Part shown: positions 2,164-17,808 of the stretch, piece after piece
How positions within the stretch are numbered: position 1 is the first letter of the stretch
How the letters are laid out: each line of letters opens with the position of its first letter
Notes under the pieces: generated by a model
What the model was told of the DNA's origin: nothing
What the model saw: only the letters and a program-made list of their open reading frames with translations
Database searches by the model: none
Virus record (IMG/VR): IMGVR_UViG_2541047701_000003
Length of the DNA stretch: 44,188 nt
Source: a virus
Taxonomy: Duplodnaviria; Heunggongvirae; Uroviricota; Caudoviricetes
Strand: one strand, 5' to 3'
Made by a program: the position numbers and the translations under genes

Positions 2164-2352
2164 TCACGAGGACAGAAGTTTCTCGCAATTAAAATTTATC
2201 AGCTTTACTTTCTGCTCTCTGGACACGCCTGCTTCTTTTTTCCCTGAGAGCATTTTTTCGCATTCTGATTTCGTTAATTTAGATTTTGAATATCTTGTCC
2301 AGTTAGTAGGAGTGCCACCTTCTTTTTCAATAGTGGCAGTTATTTTATACAT
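2164..2352 (-). CDS. Hypothetical small protein (position equivalent to Rac ydaC)
   Basis: 62 aa from ATG with GGAGG SD; overlaps stop of upstream Lar gene by 8 nt. Confidence 0.4.
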   Translation of the reverse strand: MYKITATIEKEGGTPTNWTRYSKSKLTKSECEKMLSGKKEAGVSREQKVKLINFNCEKLLSS

Positions 2353-7636: not shown

Positions 7637-7988
7637 AATTATCTCCATTTTTACAAATGAATTTTGTCGATGCGGTGCCTGGTGCCTCCAGGTGACGTTA
7701 ACCAGTTAACAATTAACGCCGGATAATCCACCCATAACACTGATGCTTTTAACTGTGCCGCGTGCGCTTAGCCGCATTCACCGCATCACAAAATTCACTT
7801 TAAAAAGGGGCGGCAGGGCAGCCACGGAGTAGAACTGATGCCGCCAAAGACTACACATAGCAATGTCGTTATTTACAACCGGAGGCGCACTCCCACCATT
7901 TAAATTTAACAGACAAGACCGACTCTTTATGAATACCGGAAATGCGCCTTCGTGTTGTGCGCCTGTCTTTTTACCACTTCAGGCTCGG

Positions 7989-12647: not shown

Positions 12648-13070
12648 ATGACAAGAGCATTTACACCAGAAGAGCGGGAAAAAATTAAGGGGCTGATCGT
12701 GGAATTCGTACGCCTTAACGGACGAGGCACGATTCGGCAGTTATCGGATGAAATTGGTGTCAGTCATGCGTCTGTCGGTCGTTTATGCATGGAGCTGGCC
12801 GCCAGTGGTGATGTTTACAATTCCGGTTACGGAGTATTCCCGTCTGAGCAGGCGCGCAAGGACTGGCAAAACGCCCGCAAAAAACTCTCAAGGGCAAAGC
12901 TGAAGAAACCATCTGTGGTTGATCCGGACCTTATCTGGCTATTACCAGACGGCGAAATACGCCGCTACGACAGGCGCCTAAACATAATCTGTCGCGAGTG
13001 CCGGAAGAGTGAAGCTATGCAGCGTGTACTGGCTTTCTATCAGGGTAATTTTCAGGAGACGGTACTGTGA
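12648..13070 (+). CDS. Hypothetical protein
   Basis: 140 aa from ATG with GGAGG SD (MTRAFTPEE...). Confidence 0.5.
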   Translation: MTRAFTPEEREKIKGLIVEFVRLNGRGTIRQLSDEIGVSHASVGRLCMELAASGDVYNSGYGVFPSEQARKDWQNARKKLSRAKLKKPSVVDPDLIWLLPDGEIRRYDRRLNIICRECRKSEAMQRVLAFYQGNFQETVL

Positions 13071-14579: not shown

Positions 14580-14750
14580 ATGACTACTTTTACCGACAAA
14601 GAACTGATTAAAGAAATCAAAGAGCGCATAGGCAGCCTGGACGTCCGAGACAATATTGAGCGTCGGGCTTATGAAATTGCGCTGGCATCGCTGGAAGCAG
14701 AGCCGGTTGTGTTCTGGTTTGAAAAATATCAAGAAGGGGCTACGGCATGA
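14580..14750 (+). CDS. Hypothetical small protein, paralog of N-terminus of next gene (not in ORF track)
   Basis: 56-aa [21 protein letters not shown]...[10 protein letters not shown]; ATGA-coupled to next gene. Confidence 0.4.
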
Positions 14751-15091
14751 CGACTTTTACCAGAGAGCAGTTAATAGCTCACGCAGAGGAGACTATTGAA
14801 GCACAGAGACTGTGCATACCGGGCACAATCGACCATGACATCATCCGCACATATAAGATGGATATTGCTGTTCTGGAAATCGCACTGGTATCGCTGGCAG
14901 CAGAGCCAGCCGGTAAATTGCATGAATACAAACCAGTGGGATATCAGCGTCTGGTCGATGAGTTAACCATGCTGGTAAAGCAGTTAACCTGGCAACTGAG
15001 GAAAGCGAAGCCAGACTGCAAATTACCGGATAAGGCGATGAGTTATCTGGAGCGGAACGGACTGATAAGCGTGGAGGATATTTTACGATGA
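14747..15091 (+). CDS. Hypothetical protein
   Basis: 114-aa [18 protein letters not shown]...[10 protein letters not shown]. Confidence 0.5.
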
Positions 15092-15171
15092 CCTGGCCTG
15101 AAGCATTAACAACGGTAGGAATTGCGATGGCGGTGACGCTGATGGTGTATTCGATTTGCCGCTGGGGATAA
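15088..15171 (+). CDS. Possible small hydrophobic membrane peptide (27 aa)
   Basis: [27 protein letters not shown]; GGAGGA SD; ATGA overlap with upstream stop. Confidence 0.25.
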
Positions 15172-15325
15172 AAACGGTTTGCGGGAAAAGGAGAGTTAAG
15201 TAGAATTGCTGCGGGTGCTTGAGGCTATCTGTCTCAGGCATGAACACCAAAAGGCAGATAGAGAAAAGCCCCAGTTAACATTACGCGTCCTGCAAGACGC
15301 TTAACATTAATCTGAGGCCCAATCT

Positions 15326-15538
15326 ATGTCTCACAAATGTAGGTTAGCCTCTTACGTGCCGAAAGGCAAGGAGAAGCAGGCTATGAAGCAGCAAAAGGCG
15401 ATGTTAATCGCCCTGATCGTCATCTGTTTAACCGTCATAGTGACGGCACTGGTAACGAGGAAAGACCTCTGCGAGGTACGAATCCGAACCGGCCAGACGG
15501 AGGTCGCTGTCTTCACAGCTTACGAACCTGAGGAGTAA
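15326..15538 (+). CDS. mok: Mok-like reading frame (N-terminal extension of hok)
   Basis: 70-aa ORF in frame with hok, as in chromosomal mok/hok loci. Confidence 0.45.
   Translation: MSHKCRLASYVPKGKEKQAMKQQKAMLIALIVICLTVIVTALVTRKDLCEVRIRTGQTEVAVFTAYEPEE
15383..15538 (+). CDS. hok: Hok/Gef-family type I toxin
   Basis: 51 aa MKQQKAMLIALIVICLTVIVTALVTRKDLCEVRIRTGQTEVAVFTAYEPEE, typical Hok sequence; 5'/3' fold-back complementarity in flanking RNA. Confidence 0.75.
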   Translation: MKQQKAMLIALIVICLTVIVTALVTRKDLCEVRIRTGQTEVAVFTAYEPEE

Positions 15539-15608
15539 GAGACCAGGCGGGGGAGAAATCCCTCGCCACCTCTGATGTGTCAGGCATCCTCAACGCACCC
15601 GCACTTAA

Positions 15609-15628
15609 CCCGCTTCGGCGGGTTTTTT
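15609..15628 (+). terminator. Rho-independent terminator of hok mRNA
   Basis: CCCGC-ttcg-GCGGG followed by TTTTTT. Confidence 0.6.
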
Positions 15629-15813
15629 GTTGCGCGCTGAATACGCAGGGTGAAAAATAACCATATATTTGATTATATACACAACAAAAAATAAAAGTCA
15701 TTGTATCTGCACATTAAATAATCAAATATACGGCGTGAAATAAATATTTTTCAGATTAATATTTTTGTCTCTATGTGGATATAACCGTTTGTACTTATAA
15801 ACTCGGAGGCATC

Positions 15814-16026
15814 GTGGAAAAAATAAAGAAACTATTTAGTTGCAAATACGCAGTCATACGTCGTGATGACCTGTCAGTTATAGTCGAAATGGATTACTTC
15901 CCTGAAACCCCAAAATCAATGATGTATCGTAATGGTCGAAAGGCAATTTTTTTACCGATGAGGTTAAGTGACATTATGGGAAATGATAAACTGCTGGATG
16001 AATTGCGAGTCAGAGCATCCTGTTAG
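15814..16026 (+). CDS. Hypothetical protein downstream of an AT-rich promoter region
   Basis: 70 aa from GTG with GGAGG SD; start uncertain (ORF track begins at 15775). Confidence 0.35.
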   Translation: MEKIKKLFSCKYAVIRRDDLSVIVEMDYFPETPKSMMYRNGRKAIFLPMRLSDIMGNDKLLDELRVRASC

Positions 16027-17538: not shown

Positions 17539-17564
17539 CTCAATCTGTTATCCGGGGCTATATT
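17535..17564 (+). promoter_or_regulatory. Candidate late promoter pR'
   Basis: TTGACT (17535..17540) - 18 nt - TATATT (17559..17564) directly after Q stop. Confidence 0.4.
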
Positions 17565-17625
17565 CCTCACGCGCCAGCAAAATCTGGCGTCGGGATTGGC
17601 GTCCTGGATAGAGACCGCGACAGAT

Positions 17626-17648
17626 ACACGCCGCGAGCGTGTTTTTTA
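17626..17648 (+). terminator. Candidate tR' terminator
   Basis: ACACGC-cgcga-GCGTGT followed by TTTTTTATT about 60 nt downstream of the -10. Confidence 0.5.
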
Positions 17649-17808
17649 TTGTCGTATGCACGCGCACATCTGAATTATGGTGGGCTGTGTGGGGGCGGAG
17701 AGATCCGCGCCGGTCGGTTTCCCGGTTACGCCAACCCCGCACAGTTCACCACCAGACGATTGGCGTCGTCGGTGGTGAGTTATTAAGAAACCACCAGAGG
17801 GCGTCATT

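Follow-up and report, generated by a model that had tools for sequence, protein, structure and literature searches.

The stretch from position 15178 to 15630 of the 44,188-nucleotide viral DNA analysed here (the window) is, as read from its sequence, a complete and intact hok/mok/sok type I toxin-antitoxin cassette of the hokD type. We put the probability at roughly 90% that it is a complete, apparently functional member of the hokD/hokW lineage, with a mechanism like those of plasmid R1 hok/sok and hokW-sokW, and that it is preceded by a separate gene for a 27-aa peptide. A sequence-only reading of the same DNA had recognised a hok/mok type I cassette with a fold-back arrangement; the locus is indeed a complete hokD-type one, and a close relative of hokW-sokW. 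The cassette type is already known, and the window holds an ordinary copy, one of thousands, of a textbook type I system. All elements of the plasmid R1 model are present, namely promoter, tac, metastable partner, ucb, in-frame mok, hok Shine-Dalgarno sequence, fbi and terminator. The features of the locus and of the upstream ORF, with the basis of each assignment, are as follows.

15073..15077, plus strand: Shine-Dalgarno sequence GGAGG of the 27-aa ORF, within the 3′ end of the preceding gene (read from the sequence)
15088..15171, plus strand: 27-aa small ORF with a single transmembrane segment (ORF list, pN/pS, conserved start and stop)
15178..15206, plus strand: putative hok/mok promoter, −35 TTTGCG at 15178-15183, 17-nt spacer, −10 TAGAAT at 15201-15206 (conservation)
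15213..15630, plus strand: full-length hok mRNA, ~418 nt, with a probable 5′ end at G15213 (start of the RF01794 match, terminator)
15213..15224, plus strand: tac (translational activator) box GGGUGCUUGAGG (pairing with fbi in the minimum free energy (MFE) fold, covariation)
15231..15241, plus strand: partner of tac in the metastable 5′ hairpin (fold of the 3′-truncated RNA)
15264..15334, minus strand: predicted Sok, 71 nt, whose single-stranded 5′ tail of 14 nt spans the mok start codon and is followed by a long hairpin and a U tail (transferred from sokW of AF125520)
15266..15274, plus strand: ucb or anti-Shine-Dalgarno box AAGCCCCAG (pairs with the mok Shine-Dalgarno sequence in the full-length fold, with tac in the Rfam consensus)
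15314..15317, plus strand: mok Shine-Dalgarno sequence GAGG, 8 nt before the mok start (read from the sequence)
15326..15538, plus strand: putative mok, 70 codons, frame and stop in common with hok (ORF; aligns with the annotated mokW of 933W)
15341..15369, minus strand: predicted Sok promoter, −35 TTGCCT at 15369..15364, 17-nt spacer, −10 TAACCT at 15346..15341 (identical to 933W)
15369..15373, plus strand: hok Shine-Dalgarno sequence AGGAG (read from the sequence)
15383..15538, plus strand: hok toxin gene, 51 aa (intact ORF, Pfam PF01848, identity to K-12 HokD)
15521..15524, plus strand: UACG TadA-editing motif at hok codon 47 (preprint 10.1101/2025.08.07.668861)
15588..15600, plus strand: fbi (fold-back inhibition) box CCUCAA(C)GCACCC (fold, covariation, uniqueness)
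15607..15630, plus strand: intrinsic terminator, a 7-bp GC-rich stem with a UUCG loop and a U run (terminator scan; common to K-12 hokD)

The 51-aa product of hok matched the Pfam HOK_GEF family (PF01848) with E = 1.2e-23 and 82.9 bits against a cut-off of 22, and has the length of about 50 aa and the N-terminal transmembrane helix of the Hok/Gef toxins. Comparison with known hok families showed it to be identical to K-12 HokD/RelF at 51 of 51 positions (100%) and to HokW of 933W at 47 of 51 (92%); the C-terminus reads TAYEPEE in the window and VDYESEK in HokW. HokW is itself only ~44% identical to the Hok of R1 (PMC8621323). NCBI PGAP names identical copies hokD, and the identical protein WP_000813254.1 is labelled HokD. 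Scores of this Hok against the NCBIfam HMMs of the Hok family and of HokA stayed below the cut-offs (48.5 against 73), and the name hokD is therefore based on identity and not on an HMM. No PADLOC defence model matched Hok, the 27-aa peptide or the flanking ORFs. A preprint describes HokD as toxic and its codon 47 as a possible site of editing by TadA, at the UACG (10.1101/2025.08.07.668861).

The earlier description of an intact Hok with an in-frame Mok extension also held. The 51-codon hok ORF is overlapped from its 5′ side by a mok frame that has its own Shine-Dalgarno sequence, starts at 15326 and runs to the common stop, predicting a product of 70 aa. PHROG 251 ('MokW-like host killing') matched mok at 8e-33.

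The hexamers TTTGCG and TAGAAT probably form the hok promoter. The −10 sequence TAGAAT was kept in about 43 of 48 distinct upstream versions that retain tac, even where unrelated DNA lies further upstream, and each alternative upstream module brings its own TTGgcN or TTGcgN hexamer, placed 16-17 nt from the −10. A simple consensus promoter scan reported neither the hok nor the Sok promoter, both being weak matches to the consensus; the two were assigned via conservation and published sokW mutagenesis in place of the scan. The 5′ end of the mRNA is placed at G15213, where the RF01794 match begins and before which the −10 box ends by 6 nt. At the other end of the transcript, fbi lies 51 nt past the hok stop, directly 5′ of the only terminator-like site in the region, which was located at 15607-15624. 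The tac box was invariant in 106 hokD-type copies, a result for which the construction of the sample is partly responsible. Rfam family RF01794 ('sok') matched 15213-15388 on the plus strand with 120 bits against a threshold of 59. Since this match is on the plus strand, it covers the leader of the hok mRNA, and it shows the place of Sok but not its strand.

The sequence 5′-GCGGGUGCUUGAGG pairs with CCUCAA(C)GCACCCGC in 14 base pairs with one bulged C. When 15211-15628 was folded, the tac/fbi pairing was found in both the MFE and the centroid structures, with z = −8.4 and none of 100 shuffles as good. The complementarity that the sequence-only reading saw between the 5′ leader and the 3′ end just before the terminator is thus real, with its coordinates shifted by 1-2 nt: ctgcgggtgcttgagg occupies 15209..15224 rather than 15211..15226, and the 3′ string 15588..15602 rather than 15589..15603. 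The 3′ box is unique in the 44-kb window when both strands are searched with one mismatch allowed (0.32 occurrences expected).

In the full-length fold, positions 15268-74 of ucb were paired with 15312-18, masking the region of the mok Shine-Dalgarno sequence, and in the Rfam consensus structure positions 15213-20 of tac are paired with 15266-72 of ucb. When a 3′-truncated RNA (15213-15586) was folded, tac was found in a local hairpin with 15231-15241, which matches the metastable structure of R1 (PMC9841398). For the truncated mRNA, ViennaRNA favoured this metastable 5′ hairpin and gave no tac/ucb stem, which marks a limit of the prediction. A ucb box that alternates between the mok Shine-Dalgarno sequence and tac was found together with a metastable hairpin, the tac/ucb pairing coming from the Rfam consensus and not from the energy model.

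R1 proved too divergent for blastn: a distant search of plasmids recovered no R1-type hok/sok loci, and covariation was therefore tested on chromosomal loci of other genera. Each 5′ box of a hok locus from another species was matched to its own 3′ region, yielding 13 distinct tac plus fbi pairs. The tac/fbi pairing covaried across Escherichia, Kluyvera, Photorhabdus, Pantoea, Citrobacter and Pseudocitrobacter. In the alignment 87.9% of cells were paired, as against 30-54% when the partners were slid by 1-3 columns; the fbi segments were chosen by a permissive motif, which may inflate the percentage paired but cannot create compensatory changes. Three pairs showed such changes, and the covariation score was reached by none of 500 shuffles. 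A U-A pair was replaced by C-G in Photorhabdus and Pantoea, and a G-C pair by A-U in Kluyvera, Photorhabdus and Citrobacter. Conservation in other genera did not extend to the two outermost pairs (G15211 and C15212), which fits a transcript starting at G15213. Long-range closure of tac on fbi is therefore seen both in the fold and in the covariation.

The antisense RNA was placed by carrying the sokW feature of 933W (AF125520) through the DNA alignment. The minus strand, on which a promoter and a Sok-like transcript had been suspected, holds by homology a predicted Sok at 15334..15264 with a promoter at 15369..15341. In the fold of the predicted RNA (z = −5.3) the tail is followed by a hairpin and then by a U run. 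The promoter stretch is the same as that of 933W throughout and is nearly invariant in the 106 copies. Takada et al. (2021) silenced sokW with primers YO-421/422, which change the plus-strand sequence TAGGTTAG to CCGGCTCG (PMC8621323). This change destroys exactly the −10 sequence TAACCT; a harmless construct became growth-inhibiting and antitoxin activity was abolished (PMC8621323). As this promoter does not differ from that of 933W at any position, the place of Sok, which the sequence-only reading could not assign, is settled at the level of sequence. The locus is thus predicted to encode in cis an antisense RNA that has a promoter of its own and is complementary to the mok initiation region. 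Variation among the 106 cassette copies was concentrated at 15319-15340, a segment that takes in the Sok 5′ tail and the opening codons of mok.

The experimentally validated hokW-mokW-sokW locus of Stx2 phage 933W and Sakai prophage Sp5 (AF125520, PMC8621323) aligns with 95% of the query 15088-15640 at 92.6% DNA identity, the match extending from the first base of the 27-aa ORF as far as fbi. The alignment starts exactly at the ATG of the 27-codon ORF, which precedes hokW as well, and the 933W record annotates mokW, hokW and a 71-nt 'SokW antisense RNA' at the homologous position. The two loci have the same hok promoter, tac and ucb, the same Sok promoter and hairpin, and the same in-frame mok and fbi, and both belong to lambdoid prophages. 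The first five mok codons, which correspond to the Sok 5′ tail, differ between the two at 6 of 15 positions. Unlike the window, 933W has no terminator hairpin after fbi, and the position in the phage genome is also different, the window locus lying between the replication genes and a Q-like gene.

The Hok encoded by K-12 hokD (relF) of the Qin prophage is 100% identical to that of the window, and the hok Shine-Dalgarno sequence, 3′ UTR, fbi and terminator are nearly identical. In K-12, however, relBE is fused upstream, and the hok promoter, tac, ucb, mok and Sok, all of which are present in the window, are missing. As K-12 relE-hokD shares only 15369-15631 with the window, the K-12 locus is the truncated form and the copy in the window the whole one. 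Plasmid R1 hok/sok (parB) has the same set of elements in the same order (tac, metastable partner, ucb, mok Shine-Dalgarno sequence, mok, hok and fbi) and an antisense Sok with a single-stranded 5′ tail, and it was on this family that the Rfam model matching the window at 120 bits was built. In R1 mok is out of frame with hok, whereas in the window it is in frame. The replicon and role differ too: R1 hok/sok serves plasmid stabilisation, and the window locus is carried by a prophage.

The window seems to hold a complete lambdoid prophage, Rac-like in type and inserted next to yebY/ryeA-sdsR. Its genes are arranged in the order yebY, ryeA/sdsR, integrase, ralR/RalA, recT, recE, kil, DicF, repressors, ydaS/T/V and replication genes, followed by a DUF977/DUF551/Ea22-like block, the 27-aa ORF, hok, DUF1367, YbcO and the Q-like gene, and then by ORF6N, lysis genes, terminase, and head and tail genes. 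The hok gene thus lies in the early-right (replication-to-Q) region and is co-directional with the early-right operon. A megablast search with 15088-15640 found similar DNA in 4948 of 5426 complete E. coli genomes, at 12,805 places in total (median 2 and maximum 10 per genome), and in 107 phage records, mostly of Stx-converting phages. At 80 IMG/VR loci with an identical Hok the upstream DNA was mosaic, homology starting at 15088, ~15166, ~15193-15201 or 15369. The class starting at 15369 has the K-12 arrangement, in which relE leads directly into the hok Shine-Dalgarno sequence.

The 27-aa ORF is the last gene of the DUF551/Ea22-like block, and it is probably a real, translationally coupled gene for a small membrane protein. 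The sequence-only reading had it coupled to the preceding gene, and the sequence fits this: its ATG (15088-90) overlaps the TGA (15089-91) of the preceding 114-codon ORF (14747-15091) in the sequence ATGA, and GGAGG lies 10 nt 5′ of the start. A degenerate search of IMG/VR for the 3′ third of the ORF gave 144 instances, of which 74 were distinct sequences. The search pattern did not include codons 2-19, over which the pairwise pN/pS was 0.31, compared with 1.04 and 1.72 in the other sense frames, and third codon positions held 134 of 212 non-consensus cells. These values argue against the proposal that the 27 codons are no gene at all but a chance frame in DNA kept for some other purpose, for instance as an upstream promoter element of hok or as an antisense ORF of 55 codons. 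We consider that proposal unlikely, although PGAP annotation omits the ORF, no match was found in Pfam, NCBIfam or PADLOC, and in 7 of the 144 copies the frame is broken at codons 2-3, by a stop or a frameshift. The antisense frame has a similarly low pN/pS (0.27), as expected because its wobble positions are shared with the 27-aa frame.

The two ends of the ORF also speak for a gene. An ATG or GTG start with the ATGA or GTGA overlap, and with GGAGG or AGGAGG 8-10 nt before it, was kept behind at least four unrelated upstream genes. The stop fell at codon 28, as TAA or TGA, in 60 of 62 versions with an intact start, and its position was constant before at least six unrelated downstream sequences, many of which are intrinsic terminators. 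Mosaic joints coincide exactly with both ends of the ORF (15088 and ~15166). The antisense 55-codon ORF (15250..15083) was rejected as the selected frame, since it extends across the mosaic joints and over the hok promoter, and would require a start codon in every unrelated downstream module. A fusion of DUF551 with a transmembrane tail was likewise rejected, as DUF551 proteins clustered with the 27-aa peptide do not contain it.

The 27-aa ORF was present in 1198 of 5426 complete E. coli genomes (~22%). It matched PHROG 4612 (unknown function) weakly, with E = 0.0011, and a look-up of exact-sequence clusters showed that the peptide has been deposited sporadically as 'hypothetical' or 'bacteriophage protein'. 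A full-text literature search for the peptide sequence found no paper. The plasmid pBAD18-hokW-sokW of Takada et al. begins at the ATG of this ORF (primer YO-432), and the ORF is not discussed there (PMC8621323).

A mechanism for the window cassette can be transferred from plasmid R1 hok/sok and hokW-sokW. In the full-length RNA of R1, tac and fbi are closed on each other while ucb hides the mok Shine-Dalgarno sequence; 3′ trimming then leads to tac/ucb pairing, which makes the RNA accessible to ribosomes and to Sok (PMC9841398). A metastable 5′ hairpin prevents translation during transcription, and the duplex with Sok is cut by RNase III (PMC9841398). Processing of the 3′ end to a translatable mRNA, and killing upon decay of Sok, are documented for R1 (PMC9841398), and partly also for hokW (PMC8621323). 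HokW is toxic, is located in the inner membrane and is neutralised by SokW, partly via RNase III and Hfq (PMC8621323). From the sequence elements, folds, covariation and homology shown above, we infer transcription, processing, toxicity and a biological role for the window cassette.

By analogy, a weak constitutive promoter would give rise to a stable mRNA of ~418 nt, in which tac would be kept in the local 5′ hairpin during synthesis. In the finished RNA, tac (15213-24) would lie on fbi (15588-600) and ucb (15266-74) over the mok Shine-Dalgarno sequence, excluding both ribosomes and Sok. Slow 3′ trimming of fbi would allow tac to move to ucb, exposing the mok Shine-Dalgarno sequence and the Sok target. 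The unstable Sok, made from its own promoter (minus strand, 15334..15264), would pair via its 14-nt 5′ tail across the mok start, stopping translation of mok and hence of the coupled hok, and RNase III cleavage would follow. Once Sok synthesis was switched off, Hok (51 aa, with a single transmembrane segment) would be produced and would damage the inner membrane.

In the case of hokW-sokW, SokW is lost upon RecA-dependent prophage induction, HokW is seen about 1 h ahead of endolysin, and deletion of hokW-sokW delays growth arrest and halves phage release (PMC8621323). The 93% DNA identity and the identical regulatory boxes led us to assign the hokW-sokW mechanism to the window cassette, and make the same role the most likely one: Sok would be lost at induction, and early Hok would aid lysis and phage release. 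Prophage retention or the exclusion of other phages are possible alternative roles.

The cassette might instead be a silent relic, as inert as hokA/B/C/E of K-12, with no role in the prophage and hitch-hiking on mosaic phage DNA. According to the account given in preprint 10.1101/2025.08.07.668861, the chromosomal hok loci tested by Pedersen and Gerdes gave no post-segregational killing. With two to ten places per E. coli genome (median and maximum), redundancy and cross-silencing by other Sok RNAs are conceivable, and a truncated hokD is retained in K-12. We nevertheless hold this to be quite unlikely. All regulatory elements of the cassette are intact and nearly invariant in the 106 copies, compensatory change preserves tac/fbi, the 93%-identical hokW-sokW is active and influences phage release (PMC8621323), and the HokD peptide was toxic in published assays (preprint 10.1101/2025.08.07.668861). 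The preferred reading remains that of an apparently functional cassette.

Its relation to the 27-aa ORF is one of neighbourhood. In roughly half of its distinct contexts the ORF comes directly before the hok promoter, and in roughly two-thirds hok is no more than 500 nt away. About 30% of the copies have no hok within 700 nt, and terminators are often inserted between the ORF and hok; conversely, 15 of 83 hokD-type loci examined contain the ORF and 68 do not. The 27-aa ORF often sits beside hok, but as a mosaic module in its own right and not as part of the toxin cassette.

In ~60% of hokD-type loci a small hydrophobic ORF stops 6-35 nt short of the hok −35 box. These ORFs belong to three families that are unrelated to one another: the 27-aa ORF, a family with the motif ...YCL..LMDRLxx, and a 59-aa family with two transmembrane segments. 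For the ...YCL..LMDRLxx family, hok was directly next in 65 of 70 distinct copies. Despite these frequencies and the nearness of hok in two-thirds of the 27-aa ORF copies, it is very improbable that the 27-aa peptide functions as a third part of the toxin system, such as a Hok modulator or a second membrane effector, as the title of the sequence-only reading hinted, given the copies without hok, the loci without the ORF, the interposed terminators, and the R1, K-12 and chromosomal hok loci that work or exist without it.

A link of another kind between the hydrophobic peptide genes 5′ of the hok promoter and the cassette, in which read-through would silence Sok and so turn Hok on, is a speculative idea to which we give little credence. 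The DNA that separates the 27-aa ORF from the hok promoter contains no terminator, and transcription of the early operon at induction would therefore cross the convergent Sok promoter.

Beyond correct annotation the importance of this locus is small, its nearest relative having already been characterised in a Shiga-toxin phage. The window copy shows the untruncated ancestral form of K-12 hokD, as it was before the relBE fusion, and next to it a conserved, coupled membrane-peptide gene of 27 codons that standard annotation has missed. The variation in the Sok 5′ tail and early mok falls at the site where antitoxin specificity is expected when several hok loci share one cell. If the read-through idea were true, transcriptional interference on Sok would account for the unexplained RecA-dependent loss of sokW RNA in Sp5, and the upstream peptides might also act alongside Hok at the membrane.

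Two further families of small hydrophobic ORF were seen next to hok. The members of one (...AIYCLAVVLMDRLSD and MSDDISLAMEGALAV..VYCLVVFLMDRLGN) have their 3′ end a few nucleotides before the hok −35 box. They lie upstream of hok at loci L004, L013, L019, L023, L033 and others, and also occur at L260–L338; in IMG/VR, 65 of 70 distinct copies were followed directly by a hok cassette. The last 6–7 codons of this ORF are retained at one chromosomal hok, whose neighbour gene we take, from sequence alone, to be DUF208/QueH-like. The other family (...FMAVMCIEYWR), of 59 amino acids with two TM helices, occupies the same position before hok in other phages.

Near the 27-aa membrane-peptide ORF of the window and 3′ of hok lie the following additional ORFs:

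15083–15250, minus strand, 55-codon antisense ORF that runs across the 27-aa ORF as well as the promoter and 5′ end of hok
15775–16026, next ORF after hok, PHROG 1813

Low pN/pS was obtained in one antisense frame, and is probably only an effect of the wobble positions that it has in common with the sense ORF. The hok terminator is separated from the PHROG 1813 ORF by an AT-rich spacer of approximately 135 nt (15640–15775), in which two minus-strand promoter-like sites face back towards hok. Within hok itself, codon 47 is UAC and is followed by G, forming a TadA editing motif at 15521–15524; A-to-I editing at this codon would recode Tyr47 to Cys. Such Tyr-to-Cys recoding has been reported for hokB, and hokC/D/E have been proposed as further cases (2026 preprint, 10.1101/2025.08.07.668861).

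The Rfam model RF01794, 'sok antitoxin', matched the plus strand at 15213–15388, which is the hok mRNA leader and lies opposite to the strand encoding Sok. Annotation pipelines relying on this model would assign the antitoxin to the wrong strand and give it incorrect ends. Rfam also matched other RNAs of the prophage:

462–606, both strands, SraC/RyeA and SdsR/RyeB, at the integration site
2168–2346, plus strand, RalA (219 bits), the type I antitoxin to RalR
7808–7859, minus strand, DicF
17558–17756, plus strand, IsrK / C4 / c4-a1b1 cluster, downstream of the Q-like gene

Some relatives carry doubtful source labels. 'Actinobacillus phage vB_Apl-pPE4' (PP818812.1, L003) is 98.9% identical over 553 nt to this E. 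coli prophage region and has flanking genes in common with it, and 96–100% identical Hok is encoded on very short contigs of Acinetobacter idrijaensis and Xanthomonas pisi assemblies (L220, L225). These seem to be E. coli DNA, either mislabelled or present as a contaminant.

When 106 distinct hokD-type cassettes were compared, the Sok hairpin, both promoters, tac (the 5′ box of hok mRNA) and hok were almost invariant. Nearly all variation was confined to about 20 nt, at 15319–15340, where as much as 67% of a column departs from the consensus. This segment covers the first mok codons, the 5′ single-stranded tail of Sok and the Sok start site, and is the expected determinant of Sok/target specificity where one cell holds several hok loci.
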